Part shown: positions 2,387-23,999 of the stretch, piece by piece
How the letters are laid out: each line of letters opens with the position of its first letter
How positions within the stretch are numbered: the stretch's first letter is position 1
Assembly: GCA_963718585.1 (NCBI GenBank)
Contig: OY970357.1
Span: 330,001-362,000, forward strand
Length of the DNA stretch: 32,000 nt
Direction of reading: 5' to 3'
From: Candidatus Saccharimonadota bacterium
Lineage (GTDB): Bacteria > Patescibacteriota > Patescibacteriia > 2-12-FULL-60-25
The notes under the pieces: generated by a model
Told to the model about the DNA's origin: nothing
Databases searched by the model: none
Seen by the model: the letters and a program-made list of their open reading frames with translations, nothing else
Made by a program: the position numbers and the translations under genes

Positions 2387-3958
2387 ATGGCAGAGATCGC
2401 CAGGGGACTTGCGGAGCAGGTCCTGAACGCTGTGGCGCCGATCCAGTACCCGGAAGTCCCTGAAGGATCCCGGATCATCGTCCACTCGGCCGTCAGCCGA
2501 TTTTCGGTGCTGTACGAGCGCATACGCAATGCGATCGATTGGAAGGATGAGCACACGTTCCGACGCGCGGCCATCCTGCGGATCCTGCATCGTCAGCTGA
2601 TCCTTGAGAGTGACGCGGAGGTGATCGCGCATAATCTCATCCTCGAGTTGATCGCTGCGCGGTATCTCCCGAATAACGAACTGGCGGAGAGTCTTGTCAA
2701 TGATGCGGCGATCCGTGTCGCTAAATATCAGGCGGTCGCTCGCACGCGCGTCGGTCCGGAGTCGCATCTGGATTGGCTCCGACGTCTGATGGCGGTTGAG
2801 CTGGAGGAGATGCTCGTGGATGCCACGCAGGAGAAAGCGCTGGTGACTTTTTTGTATGAGCGGCTCGCCGATCGGATCCGTGTCGCCGTCCCCGGCATGT
2901 CGGAAGGGGATCTGCGTCTGCAGATCTATATCGCGTGTTATCGGACGTATCTCAAGGCAGGAGACGATGTTCTTGGATATAAATTGTTGCGTGCGTATCT
3001 GCCGGAGTGGACGCGACCGCAGGAGTGGCTGGAAGATCCGGTGCCCATCGCGGAGCGATTGATCGGCGTTCAGCGTCGGATCAAGGTGAGTCTGACGCAC
3101 CGCCTAGCTCTCAAATTCCAGCGGTCGGTCAGACCCTATGCAGTTTCTTTGGAGGTCCTGCGCGACGCCTTGTTAGACAAGCCAGAGGAGGCGGCCGTGC
3201 TGTTGTCCAAGCCAGAGGCGCTGGATGCGGTCATTGCGCGCATCGCACAACGAAAATATCAGGATTCCAAGGGCCGTCTGCGTCGAGGGGCCGTTCGGGC
3301 GACCTTCTACCTCTTCATCACGAAGATGATCGTCGCGTTCGTCTTGGAGGTGCCGCTGGAATACCTGTGGTATGGGAGCGTCGCGACGACGGCGTTGACG
3401 ATCAATGTCGCGTTCCCGCCGACGCTCATGTTCTTCGTTTCCCTGTTCATCCATGTCCCTGGTCGCAACAATACGGAACGGATCCAGGCGAATGTGAATG
3501 CCCTGTTGTCAGAGAGCGGTGTTCCGCTCCGTGAACTTCGGACTGCTCGCCGGCGCAATTCGGCGGCGCAGTTCCTGTTTACATGCGCATACGGATTGAT
3601 GTTCGTCTTCACTTTTGGATTGATCGGAGGCGTTCTCATGACCTTGCGCTTCACCTGGCTGTCTGCCGCGATCTTCTACTTCTTCCTCTGTGTGGTCAGT
3701 TTCTTCGCCTTTCGCCTCCGGATGGCGGCTCGGGAATACGTGATCGTCGCCGGACGGGACCGTTTCACGACCGTGATCTTTGATTTTCTCTCCTTGCCGA
3801 TCCTGCGTGCGGGGAAGTGGCTCTCCCGGAGCATTTCCCGCTTGAACGTCTTTTTATTCATTCTCGACTTTCTCATCGAGGCTCCGTTCAAGATCTTTCT
3901 CGGTGTCCTGGAGGAGTGGTTCGCATTCATGAAGGAAAAGAAAGAAGAGCTCCAATAG
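2387..3958 (+). CDS. Large conserved-looking hypothetical membrane protein (soluble helical N-terminal half, multi-TM C-terminal half)
   Basis: 523-aa ORF. About 300 aa of helical soluble sequence is followed by at least 4 hydrophobic helices (for example FYLFITKMIVAFVLEV, LTINVAFPPTLMFFVSLFI, FLFTCAYGLMFVFTFGLIGGVLM, LSAAIFYFFLCVVSFFAF). No catalytic motif recognised. Confidence 0.7.
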   Translation: MAEIARGLAEQVLNAVAPIQYPEVPEGSRIIVHSAVSRFSVLYERIRNAIDWKDEHTFRRAAILRILHRQLILESDAEVIAHNLILELIAARYLPNNELAESLVNDAAIRVAKYQAVARTRVGPESHLDWLRRLMAVELEEMLVDATQEKALVTFLYERLADRIRVAVPGMSEGDLRLQIYIACYRTYLKAGDDVLGYKLLRAYLPEWTRPQEWLEDPVPIAERLIGVQRRIKVSLTHRLALKFQRSVRPYAVSLEVLRDALLDKPEEAAVLLSKPEALDAVIARIAQRKYQDSKGRLRRGAVRATFYLFITKMIVAFVLEVPLEYLWYGSVATTALTINVAFPPTLMFFVSLFIHVPGRNNTERIQANVNALLSESGVPLRELRTARRRNSAAQFLFTCAYGLMFVFTFGLIGGVLMTLRFTWLSAAIFYFFLCVVSFFAFRLRMAAREYVIVAGRDRFTTVIFDFLSLPILRAGKWLSRSISRLNVFLFILDFLIEAPFKIFLGVLEEWFAFMKEKKEELQ

Positions 3959-5273: not shown

Positions 5274-5302
5274 TTGACCTGACGAAAAAAGATTGATATG
5301 CT
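5274..5302 (+). promoter_or_regulatory. Sigma70-like promoter (TTGACC-17-TATGCT) for the 5356 gene
   Basis: TTGACC at 5274-5279, 17-nt spacer, TATGCT at 5297-5302. It is followed by a leader of about 50 nt ending in GGAGG (5345-5349). Confidence 0.5.
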
Positions 5303-5355
5303 CCCGCCCTGTTTCACTCTTGAAGCAGGGTACTTTCGAAAATCGGAGGCAACGA

Positions 5356-6744
5356 ATGGGACAAACGACCGCGACAGAGCAGGGGAATGGAAAAGGATTC
5401 GGCGTTCAGGAGAACGTGACCGGCAGCCGGAGCATCCCTCCGCCGCTCATCCACAAGACCGTGGACCTCGCTTGCATCCCCGAGGAGGATGCCGTGTTCT
5501 ACATCAAGGATCGGGAACGTTCGGCCGCGTATCAGGCCTACGGCTTCGAGCGCACCGCCTACTATGACAAGGAAGCGGCGGTGCTCATGGTGTTCACCTG
5601 CATCGACGAACGCGAATCGGATTTCGAGACGTGCATGGGGATCCCCATCGGGGCGGCGAACGTCATCCAGACCGGTGGAAGCAAGCTCGGGGAGGTGAAT
5701 CACCCGGTCCGCGCCTACATCCAGCGGAAGGTCAAGAAGGCACACGAGCGCGGCAAGGTGGTGCTGACCCTCTTCGTCACGCACGAGTCCACCGCGCATC
5801 CGGACGACGATTCCTGCGCCGCATGGAACCACGATATCGCCGCCGCAAACCAGTACGCCACGGAGCGCGTGGCCCGGTTCAACGCCGAACACGTGGACCG
5901 GAGTCAGGACGGGACGGTCTCTCGGCGCCACCTGGTGGCGATCCACATCAAGAGCTTCACGGACAGCGAAGCGCGCGTGTGGGTCGGTATGAATGGTGAG
6001 ACGCTGGATCCGCGCGAGTACGCTCACCCCAATGGGGGAGGGTCGCATGTCATCGAGGGGGTGGCGCTCGAACAGGCGCTCCACGTGCATCTGATGAAGA
6101 TCTACCCCTACGATGATCCTCGCTTCGAGGGTCTCATGCGTCCGCAGTGGATGGAGATCCTCTGGCAGTGCGCGCGGATGGCTCAGTACAACGTGGGCGT
6201 GGTCCGCAGTATGGAGACCGGACTGCGCACCGTCGAAAAGGCCGGACACAAGGGGACGCGGGTGCTGGTCGGTCGCGGGTGGGACATGTACGACGAACCG
6301 AACGCCTTCTTCAAGGTCGGGGACTTCTCCCCGGACTTCACGAAGGAGTGCCGGATCGCGGCCAAATACCTGATCCGGAACGGGCTCATCTGCGCGATGC
6401 GTGATGACGCCGTGGGCAGGTCACAGCCCGTGACCTTCCACGTGAACGTCCTGTACGAGGACGAGCCGGGCGATCGGAGCAACTCGATCGGTCACGCCAT
6501 GGACATCGCGCGGACGATCCGCACGGATCTCCGGACGATGATGAATACGGCAGAAAGCCGTGACGCGTTCGACGAAGCGCTGAGGCTGGCGATGTATCAC
6601 GAAGGAGTTCCCTGGACGGATCTGTCACTCAAGATCCGTACGACCTACCACGAAGACGCTCTGCGGGATCTCCGGATCTACGTGAGCGTCTCGAAGCGCG
6701 ACACCCGCTCGCTCGAGCTCGTCGCGACCATCGAAGACCTCTGA
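5356..6744 (+). CDS. Hypothetical protein with a beta-carbonic-anhydrase / CsoSCA-like zinc-site motif
   Basis: The ATG at 5356 is preceded by GGAGG with 6-nt spacing; the ORF-track start at 5293 is a TTG. Motifs are FTCIDER (C82-x-D84-x-R86) and THESTAHPDDDSC (H143-x10-C154). The product is 462 aa, with its own promoter and terminator. Confidence 0.8.
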   Translation: MGQTTATEQGNGKGFGVQENVTGSRSIPPPLIHKTVDLACIPEEDAVFYIKDRERSAAYQAYGFERTAYYDKEAAVLMVFTCIDERESDFETCMGIPIGAANVIQTGGSKLGEVNHPVRAYIQRKVKKAHERGKVVLTLFVTHESTAHPDDDSCAAWNHDIAAANQYATERVARFNAEHVDRSQDGTVSRRHLVAIHIKSFTDSEARVWVGMNGETLDPREYAHPNGGGSHVIEGVALEQALHVHLMKIYPYDDPRFEGLMRPQWMEILWQCARMAQYNVGVVRSMETGLRTVEKAGHKGTRVLVGRGWDMYDEPNAFFKVGDFSPDFTKECRIAAKYLIRNGLICAMRDDAVGRSQPVTFHVNVLYEDEPGDRSNSIGHAMDIARTIRTDLRTMMNTAESRDAFDEALRLAMYHEGVPWTDLSLKIRTTYHEDALRDLRIYVSVSKRDTRSLELVATIEDL

Positions 6745-6756
6745 CACGACTCAACG

Positions 6757-6793
6757 CCCCGCCCGCCGTTTCTGGTGGACGGGGTGTTTTTTT
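6757..6793 (+). terminator. Rho-independent terminator
   Basis: CCCCGCCCGCC (6757-6767), loop GTTTCT, GGTGGACGGGG (6774-6784; one mismatch and one GU pair), then TG and TTTTTTT (6787-6793). Confidence 0.75.
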
Positions 6794-6869: not shown

Positions 6870-7649
6870 ATGGTCATTGAAGAAACGCTCGATGCCCTGA
6901 TCGACAACCTCGATCCGGACATGGAAGAGGCGGTCGCCATGACCGCCACGGACACGATCGCCGACCTGCTCTTGAATGGTCATGCCGATGCGGTCCTCCA
7001 GCGGATCGCGGATGAACTCAAAGAGGCGGATGCGTCCTCTCTCGTGGCATGCGGGGTCCTGTGTAGTCTCGCCATCGAGATCGCCCTCGCGAATGATGAC
7101 GAAGCTTTGGCCCTGCGGTTTGCGGACGTGATCGCCGAGGACCCGGATCAACTGTGCTTTGAGTACCCGGCGTACGGATACATCAAGATCATGGAGGAAA
7201 CGGAGGATGTCGCGACCGCGCGTCAGCGTTCACTGATCGGAACACCGGTCGACCAGCTTCGGGCGTTCATGGACATCGCCGAGTTCAGCAACCAGACGGA
7301 TGATCTGGAGGACGTTCGGTTTCGCGCCGCCAGCCTCGAACGCGTCATGGATGATGTCGTGGATCGGACGTTCGCGATCCATCACGCGTACCGCGTACTG
7401 ACGGTCCTGACCGGATCGGACGATGACTTCGACGCTGTCATACGGACGTTTGGTCCCTACCAGGCGGCGATCCAGCGCAGCGATGTGCTCCTCGAGATGC
7501 TGGACCAGTTCGCTGATCAAGCAAAAGCCTTCCTCTTCAAGGTCGGCGGAACGGAGCGGAACGCCCGTTACCTCGACGCGATCACGATCCCGAGTCTCAA
7601 GACGCGGATCAACGATCTTCTCGTCGAGCAGCTTACCCTGCTCAACTGA
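6870..7649 (+). CDS. Hypothetical acidic protein
   Basis: 259-aa ORF with a strong SD (AAGGAGG 6859-6865, ATG at 6870) and its own terminator. D/E-rich and helical-looking. No family recognised. A weak TTGACA (6806-6811)-17-CATGCT promoter candidate lies upstream. Confidence 0.7.
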   Translation: MVIEETLDALIDNLDPDMEEAVAMTATDTIADLLLNGHADAVLQRIADELKEADASSLVACGVLCSLAIEIALANDDEALALRFADVIAEDPDQLCFEYPAYGYIKIMEETEDVATARQRSLIGTPVDQLRAFMDIAEFSNQTDDLEDVRFRAASLERVMDDVVDRTFAIHHAYRVLTVLTGSDDDFDAVIRTFGPYQAAIQRSDVLLEMLDQFADQAKAFLFKVGGTERNARYLDAITIPSLKTRINDLLVEQLTLLN

Positions 7650-13405: not shown

Positions 13406-13935
13406 GCATCAAAGGGATCGTGACCGCAGCGGTCATCGGACTCCTCGTCGGCTTGGTCGAGGCGACATTTTCGACGTTCTTGACCGTTCCGTGGGATGCG
13501 GTGATGCCGGTCCTGCCGATCGCGGTCTTGTACGTCGTCCGTGACCGTCCCGTCTTTGCGTATGTCCTGTGCGGATGCGCAGGCGCCATGATGGATCTCT
13601 TCACGCCGGGGATCATGACCTTCGCATTCGGACGGTTGATCCTCATCGTCGCCATTTTGGACCTCTTGTCGCGGACCGTGCTGACCAATCAATCGTTCTA
13701 TGCGGCGGTCGCCATGGCCGCAGTCGCGCGTGGCGTGGATCGGATCTGGGTAGGGATCATGTCGCTGTTGACCGATGCAACGGGGATCCGCGCCACCGTC
13801 GCGGCGATGTGGCCTATGGTCTGGCGATCGGTCCTGTGGGACATGATGCTCGTCGGGCTCGCTTTTCTCATCAGTTCTTCTATCCGCCGTCGCTTCGTGA
13901 TCCGGCCGCAGACCGCGACAAAGAGATATGGGTGA
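13402..13935 (+). CDS. mreD: Probable MreD (multi-TM protein following mreC)
   Basis: ATGA overlap with the mreC stop. 177 aa and polytopic. Assigned mainly from the mreB-mreC-X-mrdA position. Confidence 0.55.
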   Translation: MSIKGIVTAAVIGLLVGLVEATFSTFLTVPWDAVMPVLPIAVLYVVRDRPVFAYVLCGCAGAMMDLFTPGIMTFAFGRLILIVAILDLLSRTVLTNQSFYAAVAMAAVARGVDRIWVGIMSLLTDATGIRATVAAMWPMVWRSVLWDMMLVGLAFLISSSIRRRFVIRPQTATKRYG

Positions 13936-15914
13936 GCGACCGTCGCGTCATGATCCGTTCCCGTGGACTTCCGGCGGGATCGGTCTGCAGCTTGAAAAGC
14001 GCATCCAAGCTGAGATGTCGCACGAGGTCCTGTTCGAGGACGAATTCACGCATCTCAAAGATGCGCCGATGTTCCTTGGTGCGGCCCTTCCGCATTCGCG
14101 CTTCTTTTTCGCCATCGGCGCGGCGTTGCTTATCGTGGGCATCCTGTTGGGGCGCGCCTTTTGGATGCAGGTGGTCCAGGGGAACTCCTATGGCGCGCTT
14201 GCGGACAATAATCGCCTGCGTCACGAGGTCATCACCCCAAAGCGCGGCGTCATCCGCGATCGGAACGGCTCGGTCCTGGCAGAGAATGTCCCGTCGTTCG
14301 ATCTCCAGGTCGTTCCATGGCTGTTGCCGGTCGATACGGTGACGCGGGAGGACCTACTGGCGCGCGTGGGACGGGAGGCAGGGATGTCCCTTGATACGAT
14401 CGACGCGGAGATCGCCGATGCCTCAGCCCCGACCGAGAGTCTGACGTTGATGCGTGATCTTCCGTATGACCGTGCAGTCTCGTTGGAGATCTTCCTGGGC
14501 GAAGACCCGGCGATCCATGTCGTGAGCGGGAGTAAGCGCTTATATCCGGAATCTCATGACACGACCAGTCTGTCGCATATCCTTGGATATGTCGGTTCGA
14601 TCTCACCGACCCAGCTCGCCGCCCGCGAGAACGAGGGGTATCGGCAGGTGGATCTCATCGGGAAGACCGGCATCGAAGCCTCGTATGAATCCGTGCTTCG
14701 CGGTACTCCCGGCGAGAGGGTGTCCGAGGTCGATGCACATAATCGCGTGACTTCGGTCGTGCGGGATACGCCGTCCGTGGATGGAAAGGACGTGTATCTC
14801 ACGCTTGATCTGAATATCCAGAAGGCGGCGGAAGCGGCGCTTGCGGATGAATTGAAGAAGATCCATCTGACGCGCGGAGTCGGTCGTGGCCATGGACCCG
14901 CGGGATGGTTCCATCCTCGCCCTCGTCTCCCTCCCGGCGTACGACGATAACCTGTTCTCTGGAACGGTCTCGTCTACGGAATATCAAAAGCTCGTCCAGG
15001 ATCCGGACCATCCGTTGTTGCCGCGGGCATGGGCAGGGGTCTATCCGTCCGGTTCCACGGTGAAGCCGACGATCGCCGTCGCAGCGTTGTCCGAAGGGAT
15101 CATCACCCCGCAGACGACCGTGAATTCGGTCGGGGGGCTCCGGATCGGATCGACGTTCTTTCCGGACTGGAAGGCGGGTGGTCATGGGATCACGAACGTG
15201 CGCAAGGCGATCGCCTTATCTGTGAATACGTTCTTCTATTACGTCGGGGGCGGGTATGAATCGTTCATCGGATTAGGCGTGGATCGCCTGACATCGTGGA
15301 TGCGGAAGTTCGGTCTGGGTCGCCAAAGCGGGATCGATGTTCCCGGGGAAGCGTCTGGCTTCGTCCCGTCAAAAGAATGGAAGGAAAAGACGAAGGGCGA
15401 GCGATGGTATACGGGAGACACGTACAACCTTTCCATCGGACAAGGGGATCTGCTCGTGACGCCGGTCCAAGTGGCACTGTGGACCGCCGAGGTCGCGAAC
15501 GGAGGTTGGCGGGTCATTCCACATTTCGGGTGGTATGAAGGTGCACAGGCCGACGGAACGCTCCTTGCGACCTCGACACATGTAGGAGATCAGATCGCCG
15601 CACCGGATGTGATGAAGACCGTGGAACTCGGGATGCGAGATACGGTGACGTATGGTTCCGGGCGTGCGTTGGTGAATTTTCCGGTCGCGGTGGCCGGCAA
15701 GACCGGTACGGCACAATGGCGGAACGACAAACCGAACCACGCATGGTTTACCGCGTATGCGCCGTTCGACGATCCGCAGATCGTGGTGACCGTCCTGCTG
15801 GAAGAAGGGGGAGAAGGGTCCTCTGTTGCGGTCCCGGTCGCCCAAAAAGTCCTCCAGGCTTGGTATCAAGAGACGCAGACCTCATCAACGCCCGCGATGA
15901 CCCCGACGCCCTGA
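13928..15914 (+). pseudogene. mrdA: Penicillin-binding protein 2 (MrdA, elongasome transpeptidase) interrupted by a 1-nt frameshift near 14879-14886
   Basis: ORF 13928-14950 carries the TM and pedestal region (LGRAFWMQVVQGNSY..., RGVIRDRNGSVLAEN, LGYVG). ORF 14886-15914 carries the transpeptidase domain with SGSTVKP (SxxK), SVN (SxN) and KTGTA (KTG). The family junction ...HLTRG-VVAMDPRDGSILALVS... is split between frames at GGAGTCGGTCGTGGCCATGGAC. Confidence 0.85.
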
Positions 15915-22321: not shown

Positions 22322-22960
22322 TTAATACTTTTCGTTATACAGCCAGACAGCGTTTTTACTCATGGCGACATCTGCGGGCTTGATCTCTTCCATCTGTAGC
22401 AGGAAATTCGGCGTGTTGTCATCCGAAAGGAACAGGACTTGGCTCCGCTTGTGTGGAGCGACGGCAAGATAGAACGCACGTTGTGCAAAGGTCGTACAAA
22501 CGTAGTTTTGGGTATTGATCAGTTTTTTTGCCATCTTGTAGTGTATGTTCACCCCGACCGCCCAGAGGACGAGTGACTGTAAAAAATATCCGATCAAACG
22601 TCTCATGTCATACGGTGTGTCCACGGCGTCCAAAAAGAAGCCGCGAAAGCGTTCGCGCTCTTCCTTTGTCAGGATATCGAATCGTTTGAAGCCAAGTTCA
22701 TATCGGTCGGGGTTTCGAAGATATGTATAGAGCCGGTGAACCTCGATCCCGCTGTCCTGAGCCTCGACGAGGAGAATGTCGTGTTCCGTTCCACTGATCT
22801 CAGGAACGTCAAAAACGAGCGCTACATGGCTCCAATGCGACCGCGTGAACCGCTTGACCAGGCTGGAGATCAGAGGGCCCGTCGTGCTGACCATGACGAT
22901 GTCCCCGACCTTCAAATTTCGGATCGTCTCTTCTTGGGACTGGTAAACCGTCCGCCCCAT
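22322..22960 (-). CDS. Permuted papain-like amidase, YiiX/YaeF (peptidase C92, DUF830)-like, paralog 1
   Basis: GDIVMVSTTGPLISSLVKRFTRSHWSHVALV (GD..., then the S-H-x-[AG] His motif), LVEAQ, DTPYD, and a C-terminal catalytic-type Cys in NYVCTTFAQRAFY. The His-before-Cys order indicates a circularly permuted NlpC/P60 fold. About 47-49% GC by hand count. The ATG at 22993 is an alternative start. Confidence 0.65.
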   Translation of the reverse strand: MGRTVYQSQEETIRNLKVGDIVMVSTTGPLISSLVKRFTRSHWSHVALVFDVPEISGTEHDILLVEAQDSGIEVHRLYTYLRNPDRYELGFKRFDILTKEERERFRGFFLDAVDTPYDMRRLIGYFLQSLVLWAVGVNIHYKMAKKLINTQNYVCTTFAQRAFYLAVAPHKRSQVLFLSDDNTPNFLLQMEEIKPADVAMSKNAVWLYNEKY

Positions 22961-22961
22961 A

Positions 22962-23642
22962 TCAATGCTCGTTCCAGATCCATTTGCACGCATCGCTCTT
23001 AGCGATGTCTGCAGGGGTCGTGATCTCTTGAAGCTGTATCGGTGTATAGCCGATATTCCGGAAGATCACCTTTGAACGTTCTTCCCAATCCACGGCTTCG
23101 TAAAATGCTTTTTGGATGAATCCACTGCACGAGAATCTTTGGCGGTTCAGCATCATCTTTCGAAACATTGGCGAAAGCCAGGCGAGCAGGAATTTGAATG
23201 TGTAGAGCTTGTAATACGGTGTATCGATGTTCATGAGGACGAATGCACGGACGCGTCGTCGCAGGTCGTCGTCGAGAAATGGAAAACGTTTGATCCCAAT
23301 GTCGTAGCGTTTCGGGTCATCGAGGTATTTTTCGAGCCGATGGATCTCAACACCGCTCGTATAGGCCTTTCCGATGCCATGTTGGATCGCTTCGATGATG
23401 AGGTTCGTGGCATATCCTTTTTCCGGATCTTTACCGAAGATCACCAGGGCCGAGTGGTCCCAGTAAGAATTCGTGATCCGGCGGAGAAAATACCGCATGG
23501 GTCCACCTGTACTATGCCGAACCAAGACGATGTCCCCGGTCTGGAGGTCTGGGAGATCGCCATGGACCTTTTCGAGTGCATGGCGCTTATTGGAAAGGTG
23601 TTTTTGATCTGCCGCAGATATTTTCTCACCGATGGATTTCAT
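22962..23642 (-). CDS. Permuted papain-like amidase, YiiX/YaeF (peptidase C92, DUF830)-like, paralog 2
   Basis: GDIVLVRHSTGGPMRYFLRRITNSYWDHSALV, IIEAIQ, DTPYY, RFSCSGFIQKAFYEAV. Colinear with paralog 1. Its stop is 1 nt from the paralog 1 ATG (TGAtATG). Start set at the ATG at 23642 (MKSIGEK); the ORF-track start at 23714 would overlap the divergent gene. Confidence 0.65.
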   Translation of the reverse strand: MKSIGEKISAADQKHLSNKRHALEKVHGDLPDLQTGDIVLVRHSTGGPMRYFLRRITNSYWDHSALVIFGKDPEKGYATNLIIEAIQHGIGKAYTSGVEIHRLEKYLDDPKRYDIGIKRFPFLDDDLRRRVRAFVLMNIDTPYYKLYTFKFLLAWLSPMFRKMMLNRQRFSCSGFIQKAFYEAVDWEERSKVIFRNIGYTPIQLQEITTPADIAKSDACKWIWNEH

Positions 23643-23657
23643 AGGAATATTGCGGGG

Positions 23658-23666
23658 TGATATGAT
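23658..23666 (+). promoter_or_regulatory. Extended -10 promoter element (TGaTATGAT), leaderless arrangement
   Basis: TGATATGAT at 23658-23666. The ATG at 23673 is 6 nt downstream with no SD. Confidence 0.4.
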
Positions 23667-23672
23667 GTTCAC

Positions 23673-23999
23673 ATGGCGAAAAAAGATCCATACGCGTTCA
23701 TGTTGGATGCGCATGCTTTCGTGACGGATGCATCGCCGCCTTTATACGAACTGTTCGGTTTGAAGTTTCAGAAAGATCGCAGATTTCGTTTCGATCCCTT
23801 CGTTGCACGCGAGAGCGGCGTCGTTTTTCTTCAAACAGTGTTGAATGCGTATCGAGGGGCGAAGGTGAAACGCGCCCTGATCTCCATTATACCAAAACGA
23901 GGCGTAAAAAAGTACGCATACATCAGTCTCTCCCCTGCCGAGGTCGACTCCTTAGGGCTTGTCACCGCATTGAAGGGTCGATTCGAGCTGAAGACGTGA
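23673..23999 (+). CDS. Hypothetical 108-aa protein
   Basis: ORF with an extended -10 immediately upstream and a hairpin terminator downstream. Basic, with a mixed alpha/beta-looking sequence. No family recognised. Confidence 0.5.
   Translation: MAKKDPYAFMLDAHAFVTDASPPLYELFGLKFQKDRRFRFDPFVARESGVVFLQTVLNAYRGAKVKRALISIIPKRGVKKYAYISLSPAEVDSLGLVTALKGRFELKT

Follow-up and report, generated by a model that had tools for sequence, protein, structure and literature searches.

Carbonic anhydrases (CAs) of the CsoSCA family were long believed to be exclusive to carboxysomes (PMC9164163). In CsoSCA, zinc is coordinated by C173, H242 and C253 (PMC12646314), and seven active-site residues have been listed, i.e. 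C173, D175, R177, H242, C253, H397 and E399 (Sawaya 2006 as tabulated in PMC9164163 Table 2). An H397A substitution abolishes activity, and Glu399 keeps His397 in the catalytic “near” position; moreover, the vicinal Cys283-Cys284 pair is a redox switch by which the enzyme is off in the reducing cytosol, and a C283A/C284A mutant is locked inactive (bioRxiv 10.64898/2026.04.02.716132). CyCsoSCA, the enzyme of Cyanobium PCC7001, is activated by ribulose 1,5-bisphosphate (RuBP) through R266/K469/R560 (PMC11086599). Stand-alone csoSCA homologues, named CsoSCA2, have been described as widespread, with two short N-terminal helices and the active-site residues present, and were reported in Candidatus Uhrbacteria (three genomes), Falkowbacteria, Magasanikbacteria, Moranbacteria, Pacebacteria and Staskawiczbacteria (PMC9164163); “smaller uncharacterized non-cso isoforms” have also been mentioned (PMC11086599). 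Here, we analyzed a gene (5356..6744, + strand) in a 32-kb stretch of contig OY970357.1 of a Candidatus Saccharimonadota bacterium, which we refer to as the window. Homology, a structural model and a clade-specific hidden Markov model assign its 462-amino-acid (aa) product as a homologue of CsoSCA-type β-CAs that belongs to a group of the CsoSCA superfamily referred to here as clade A.

We propose that this protein is probably an active, cytoplasmic, zinc-dependent β-class CA of the CsoSCA structural type. Its homology to CsoSCA, its fold and the conservation of its catalytic residues are established; zinc binding, CA activity and a physiological role are what we infer from them. The protein is not an orthologue of the carboxysomal CsoSCA: it has neither an N-terminal domain for Rubisco binding nor the Cys283-Cys284 pair nor Glu399, and its gene is not accompanied by cso genes.

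Because searches with the single sequence were nearly blind, profiles were required to detect this relationship. The only match of the single sequence in Pfam was CsoSCA_cat (PF20686), with an E-value of 0.014 and 15.3 bits against a gathering threshold of 21.5, and PF00484 (Pro_CA) was not matched even at E ≤ 10; searches of NCBIfam and, with phmmer, of the PDB gave nothing. In a collection of 5.8 billion proteins, only 11 relatives (clusters) were found, with 41-49% identity, and the sole named one is a “hypothetical protein” from Candidatus Uhrbacteria. A profile of these 11 homologues matched the CsoSCA chains 2FGY, 9G4T, 9SKR and 9SKX in the PDB with E-values of 1.5-3.4e-9 over query positions 123-395, placing H143 and C154 on H242 and C253 and continuing into the second, C-terminal domain of that enzyme. 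When 1.84 billion representatives were scanned exhaustively with HMMER, 194 relatives were obtained; a second word-indexed protein search, with a broad alignment, added one sequence. A superfamily profile built from 109 of the 194, including the 462-aa protein, matched CsoSCA with E-values of 6e-29 to 2e-27 and aligned C-m-D-g-R on C173-A-D175-G-R177; it also matched canonical β-CAs, carbonyl sulfide (COS) hydrolase and carbon disulfide (CS2) hydrolase over the C-x-D-x-R region. CsoSCA_cat is matched at E ≤ 0.01 by 64 of the 109 representatives. The proposal that the zinc site is CsoSCA-like, which originally rested on motif spacing, is thus upheld by the family profile (E 1.6e-9), by the superfamily profile (E ~1e-28) and by Foldseek, in which the top matches are CsoSCA; it is these homology statistics, and not the counting of motifs, that take the motifs beyond chance.

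The AlphaFold2 model of the protein has a mean predicted local distance difference test score (pLDDT) of 85.6 and a predicted template modelling score (pTM) of 0.84. When the model was compared with the PDB using Foldseek, the top five matches were all CsoSCA (E 1.6e-14 to 2e-13, template modelling (TM) score 0.54-0.59, 417-452 columns), so that CsoSCA gives the best structural matches, extending over ~450 columns; the next match was the tandem β-CA 1DDZ of Porphyridium (E 7e-8). Residues 1-30 (5356..5445) form a variable N-terminal tail that is predicted to be disordered (pLDDT < 50) and is not conserved in the alignment. In the model, two short helices (residues 43-61 and 63-72) within residues 43-72 (5482..5571) replace the ~107-residue N-terminal domain of CsoSCA. 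In total, the first catalytic strand is reached after only 72 residues, and alignments to CsoSCA start at or after the C-x-D-x-R motif, in agreement with the earlier observation that the N-terminus is much shorter than in CsoSCA. By alignment to HnCsoSCA, the enzyme of the Halothiobacillus neapolitanus α-carboxysome, residues 73-297 (5572..6246) correspond to the catalytic β-CA domain with the predicted zinc ligands C82, H143 and C154 and the D84/R86 dyad, and residues 298-462 (6247..6741), which align to HnCsoSCA residues 397-488, to a zinc-less second domain that starts at the invariant His298. This second domain carries a clade-specific helical insertion of ~40 residues at about residues 394-433. 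In the alignment of homologues, the second half of the protein has no conserved set of Cys/His ligands. A comparison of the N-terminal with the C-terminal half by hhalign gave no sign of an internal duplication (probability 0.7%) and no repeat is apparent at the sequence level. Thus, the idea that the C-terminal half is a degenerate duplicate domain stands as originally suggested, and it rests on homology to CsoSCA's C-terminal domain because self-similarity is undetectable. Altogether, the alignments show one polypeptide in which a predicted catalytic β-CA domain is joined to a degenerate, zinc-less domain, and the latter would substitute for the partner subunit of an ordinary β-CA dimer.

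The residues that were originally pointed out as a candidate zinc site are all found in the translation. The FTCIDER motif contributes C82 (5599-5601), D84 (5605-5607) and R86 (5611-5613), and THESTAHPDDDSC contributes H143 (5782-5784) and C154 (5815-5817) with H-x10-C spacing, H143 lying 61 residues after C82. In the alignment of the 11 homologues, C82, D84, H143 and C154 are invariant, and the position of R86 is occupied by Arg or, in three of the 11, by Lys; of the five residues for which the original prediction proposed a conservation test, four are thus invariant. The same four residues together with H298 (6247-6249), which aligns with the essential His397 of CsoSCA, are invariant in all 19 clade A representatives, which share <50% identity, and vary hardly at all among 146 members of the superfamily. 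Within clade A, the Arg of the dyad is R in 15 of the 19 members and K in four. The protein also retains the loop glycine equivalent to G201 and the C-A-A backbone motif, the latter being invariant in the clade A comparison. Accordingly, six of the seven listed CsoSCA active-site residues are present (C82, D84, R86, H143, C154 and H298). The position of the seventh, E399, is occupied by Gly300 (6253-6255), and is Gly in 16 of the 19 clade A members. An Arg equivalent to R196 (R266 in CyCsoSCA) is kept in the other clades, was lost in 16 of the 19 and is Gln in the 462-aa protein. Finally, none of the 19 clade A members has a CC dipeptide, the positions aligned to Cys283-Cys284 being Val and Ser. 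The substitution of Glu399 by Gly, the missing cysteine pair and the dyad that some relatives have with Lys instead of Arg are departures from CsoSCA that the original prediction did not contain.

To place the protein within the superfamily, 146 representatives and a fragment of HnCsoSCA were clustered, which resulted in three large groups. Clade A, which includes the 462-aa protein, has 19 representatives (taken at 50% identity) of ~450 aa with H-x10-C spacing and mostly Gly at the Glu399 position; clade B has 31 representatives of ~422 aa in which Glu399 is mostly kept; and clade C has 84 representatives of ~360 aa with H-x9-C spacing and Glu399 kept. Pairwise identities among the three clades and CsoSCA are about 19-22%. 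On a clade A model from which it had been left out, the 462-aa protein scores 561 bits, compared with 103 bits on the clade C model. By contrast, four published non-cso sequences of the PF08936 (CsoSCA_C) set of Pulsford et al., of which two belong to Moranbacteria and one each to Patescibacteria and Chromatiaceae, reach 374-424 bits with the clade C model, and these four CsoSCA2 sequences from the literature are therefore members of clade C. Examples of such compact non-cso homologues are A0A0G0F228 (Moranbacteria), A0A3D0Y0U6 (Patescibacteria) and A0A5Q4FMJ9 (Chromatiaceae). Members of clade A are without Pfam annotation and go under the name “hypothetical protein”, and clades A and B lie outside current Pfam and NCBI annotation. 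The named members of clade A are from Uhrbacteria/Patescibacteria metagenome-assembled genomes (MAGs), and a clade A gene is present in only four of 185,579 GTDB species representatives, of which two are assigned to Uhrbacteria and one to Patescibacteria, the fourth being a MAG with the label Gammaproteobacteria. In the latter (locus L011, 5685-6671, + strand), the gene is located among genes for GroEL, reverse transcriptase and RF-2 and not beside tgt; a wrong taxonomic label of this contig or a relocation of the gene may account for this.

In the mechanism that we envisage by analogy to CsoSCA, Cys82, His143 and Cys154 would hold one Zn2+ with water/hydroxide as the fourth ligand. Asp84, held by Arg86, would orient and deprotonate the zinc-bound water, and the resulting Zn-OH- would attack CO2; in the reverse direction, HCO3- would bind to the zinc and decompose. 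His298, reaching in from the start of the second domain as the equivalent of His397, would help to bind bicarbonate and shuttle the proton. Neither carboxysomal targeting nor redox gating is expected: having no Rubisco- or shell-binding domain and no vicinal-cysteine switch, the enzyme would work free in the reducing cytoplasm. Candidate roles are the supply of HCO3-/CO2 to a carboxylase or to a form II/III RuBisCO, the retention of metabolic CO2, and pH buffering.

Several observations weigh against this proposal. The residue that positions His397 in CsoSCA, Glu399, is Gly here and in most of clade A, the R196-equivalent Arg is lost in equally many members (16 of the 19 in both cases), and the dyad Arg is Lys in four of the 19 relatives. 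Because CsoSCA with the C283A/C284A substitutions is locked inactive and clade A is without this pair, conformational control must differ between the two. That the five residues meet at one site is predicted from alignment to solved structures rather than from distances. Moreover, the neighbouring genes give no functional clue, and the non-carboxysomal members of the superfamily are all experimentally uncharacterised (PMC9164163, PMC11086599).

Two alternatives draw on some of these observations. The protein could be a neofunctionalised hydrolase or hydratase that uses the same scaffold and zinc site for a different chemistry with COS, CS2 or a similar substrate, as has happened elsewhere in the β-CA superfamily. 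COS hydrolase (3VQJ) and CS2 hydrolase (3TEN) have the same C-x-D-x-R/His/Cys site and are matched by the superfamily profile (E ~8e-6), and two second-shell positions set clade A apart from CsoSCA and from clades B and C, namely the Glu399 site, where it has Gly, and that of R196, the counterpart of which is lost; it also has clade-specific insertions. However, the matches to the two hydrolases span only the generic ligand motif of ~37 residues, His298, which is equivalent to the bicarbonate-binding/proton-shuttle residue, and the C-A-A motif are invariant, and there is no sulfur-metabolism context in the window or the related loci; we therefore regard a switch in chemistry as unlikely. Alternatively, the protein might be catalytically weak or dead and have been kept for a non-enzymatic role, binding CO2/bicarbonate or zinc as a sensor or scaffold, or it might depend on an activator, as the cyanobacterial CsoSCA does on RuBP. 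The catalytic histidine is stabilised by Glu399, so that the lack of this residue would fit with low activity, as would the Lys for Arg in the dyad of four of the 19 relatives, and CsoSCA itself is conditionally inactive owing to its redox switch and RuBP allostery. Against this, the invariance of the ligands, the Asp and His298 at <50% identity has the look of purifying selection on a working site, the RuBP-contacting Arg is absent, and no partner gene is conserved next to the gene. We consider this alternative, too, to be improbable.

Two other alternatives concern the origin of the gene and the similarity itself. As the CsoSCA family was long held to be carboxysome-exclusive (PMC9164163), a stand-alone member could be what is left of a carboxysome locus that has decayed, or it could have been acquired recently from an autotroph by horizontal transfer. 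The identity to HnCsoSCA is, however, only ~19%, and the distance to every other clade is equally large; the N-terminal domain and cso genes are missing; and the gene has the same GC content as the sequence around it. In addition, the order tgt - X - UvrD-nuclease - DciA - MreB recurs on related contigs with X at 44-45% identity, and the same syntenic slot is filled in several related contigs of the candidate phyla radiation (CPR) at 23-49% identity. A remnant or an import is accordingly very hard to reconcile with composition and synteny, on which this origin was rejected as effectively refuted. Rather, because of the fixed slot between tgt and the gene for the UvrD-nuclease helicase and the matching GC content, the gene is inherited vertically in a narrow CPR lineage, which the names of the homologues and the synteny mark as Uhrbacteria-like. 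As for a chance motif match in an unrelated protein, the single sequence does fall below the Pfam threshold (15.3 vs 21.5 bits) and finds nothing in the PDB by phmmer or in NCBIfam; but profile E-values of 1e-9 to 1e-28 against CsoSCA and a Foldseek E-value of 1e-14 over the whole length refute coincidence, to which we give practically no credence. Compared with these alternatives, a cytoplasmic CA of the CsoSCA type is the interpretation that we favor.

A related and rather doubtful possibility is that clades A and B, of which the named members are CPR, constitute an unrecognised CsoSCA subfamily with an undescribed role, and that this subfamily represents either a pre-carboxysomal ancestral form or one in which chemistry or regulation has been retuned. 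The features behind this idea are the Gly in place of Glu399, the R196 loss, the Lys-for-Arg replacement in some dyads and the ~40-residue C-terminal insertion. If it were correct, ultra-small symbionts would keep an enzyme for an undescribed role, e.g. feeding nucleotide salvage by form II/III RuBisCO.

Irrespective of this possibility, CPR proteins that are labelled “hypothetical” become annotatable, i.e. the 11 clusters among 5.8 billion sequences and the 19 representatives at 50% identity, and the CsoSCA superfamily outside carboxysomes is seen to have at least three deep branches, of which Pfam captures one. Because clade A has kept the histidine and dropped both the positioning glutamate and the cysteine switch, it offers a useful comparison for the newly proposed CsoSCA mechanism. 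The clade also bears on whether the carboxysomal enzyme arose from a free cytoplasmic one, and it raises the modest question of why an episymbiont genome of roughly 1 Mb retains a 462-aa CA. Nothing is overturned by these findings, as stand-alone CsoSCA homologues in CPR phyla are already in the literature.

The gene has the appearance of a self-contained unit, and the ORF, promoter-like site, GGAGG and strong terminator originally assigned to it are all present. The open reading frame starts with ATG at 5356 and stops with TGA at 6742-6744, giving the product of 462 aa. A Shine-Dalgarno sequence, GGAGG (5345..5349, + strand), can be read 6 nt 5' of this ATG. An alternative TTG start at 5293 overlaps the -10 element of the candidate promoter, and ATG 5356 is for this reason the sensible start; in the alignment, homologues begin at the equivalent position. 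The candidate promoter itself (5274..5302, + strand) is a σ70-like TTGACC-17-TATGCT with a TG-extended -10 element, recognised by its match to the consensus; the window has a single copy of this exact pattern and none of 100 shuffles contains it. However, a generic promoter scan of the region gave a site count not above chance expectation. Downstream, folding predicts an intrinsic terminator (6755..6793, + strand) consisting of a GC-rich hairpin (6755-6786) and a U7 run (6787-6793); the hairpin has a folding energy of -26.7 kcal/mol (z = -4.2), and equally stable folds were found in 0 of 200 shuffles.

Genes in the window, other than that for the CA-like protein, include those for a DEAD helicase, tgt, an orphan, a UvrD-PD-(D/E)XK helicase, DciA, MreBCD, PBP2 and GreA, as well as tRNA synthetases, Alr, FtsQ, RmuC, CobA and a class II ribonucleotide reductase. 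As originally noted, genes for RuBisCO, shell proteins and CsoS2 are lacking from the 32 kb, and so are inorganic-carbon transporter genes. The related loci L002, L005, L007, L011 and L012 and the P0025 contig likewise contain only housekeeping synteny or unrelated genes; on the P0025 contig, the tgt slot is occupied by a clade B protein (23% identity) followed by a second CsoSCA_cat-like gene of 339 aa. The slot between the CA-like gene and that for the UvrD-nuclease helicase is variable. In the window (6870-7649, + strand), it holds the gene for the orphan, an acidic 259-aa protein that has no Pfam match and is the only member of its cluster. L002 and L007 have a HhH-GPD glycosylase gene in this slot, which is empty in L005. 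The orphan was considered as a relative of the HhH-GPD glycosylase or of the CsoSCA superfamily, and has no relationship to either. L002 (1135-3573) and L007 (706-3111) each have, ~7 kb upstream of the gene for the CA-like protein, an operon for zinc uptake, ZnuABC; it is absent from the window, and we take its position to be probably coincidental rather than a functional link.

Elsewhere in the window, the PBP2 gene (mrdA; 13928-15914, + strand) is split by a frameshift near 14875-14950 into two reading frames, of which 13928-14950 (PBP_dimer) corresponds to residues 1-323 and 14886-15914 (transpeptidase) to residues 319-653 of the single 657-aa orthologue in L002; either the assembly is in error here or the split is real, be it a pseudogene or a programmed shift. 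A 523-aa protein without a Pfam match (2387-3958, + strand) has counterparts of 521-526 aa at the same upstream position in all related CPR contigs. At 22322-23714 (- strand), two adjacent, overlapping paralogues belong to the C92 (YaeF/YiiX) family of permuted papain-like amidases and lie in the stretch with the lowest GC content of the window (0.50 vs about 0.58 elsewhere), which may be an acquired segment.

Among the known systems, canonical β-CAs (PF00484) and the Porphyridium purpureum tandem β-CA 1DDZ have in common with the 462-aa protein the α/β fold and the Cys-Asp-Arg...His...Cys chemistry, which for the 462-aa protein is a prediction. The canonical enzymes have H-x2-C where the 462-aa protein has H-x10-C, and pea β-CA gives no score with the models of clades A, B and C. 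1DDZ is likewise a single chain with two domains; both of its halves are active. As to DabA (DUF2309), the Pfam search gave no PF10070 match, and no membrane-transporter gene is a neighbour in the window or the related loci.

The carboxysomal enzymes are closer. The best structural match is CyCsoSCA (8THM; Foldseek E 1.6e-14, TM 0.58, 452 columns), at an identity of 15-17%; CyCsoSCA hexamerises via an N-terminal hook motif that the 462-aa protein does not have. With HnCsoSCA (CsoS3; 2FGY, 9G4T, 9SKR-9SKZ), the identity is ~19%, the C-x-D-x-R and H-x10-C motifs align residue-for-residue, both proteins have the His397 equivalent, the loop glycine at G201 and the C-A-A motif, and the zinc-less C-terminal domain can be aligned up to residue 488. 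By contrast, the 462-aa protein is ~91 residues shorter before the first ligand, has Gly in place of Glu399, has lost the R196 equivalent and has ~40 extra helical residues near the C-terminus. Compared with carboxysomal CsoSCA in general, it is without the N-terminal domain (residues 38-144), the disordered Rubisco-binding tail, the hook motif and the Cys283-Cys284 redox switch, and its gene lies outside a cso operon, with no cbbLS, csoS2, csoS1 or csoS4 in the window and six related contigs.

The compact CsoSCA2 proteins are similar in their setting, as both they and the 462-aa protein are encoded stand-alone outside carboxysome loci, including in CPR phyla, and share a truncated N-terminus with two short helices, the zinc ligands, the dyad and the His397 equivalent. 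They differ in that the CsoSCA2 proteins are ~340-360 aa long, have H-x9-C spacing, keep Glu399 and have ~19% identity to clade A. The view in the original prediction that an orphan CsoSCA-like CA would be unusual was thus overstated, as CsoSCA2 has been described as widespread and as extending to Candidatus Uhrbacteria and five other CPR phyla (PMC9164163). Because CsoSCA2 in Uhrbacteria and other CPR phyla has already been published, the gene described here is not a new kind of CsoSCA homologue; it is a divergent, unannotated addition to the known stand-alone ones.

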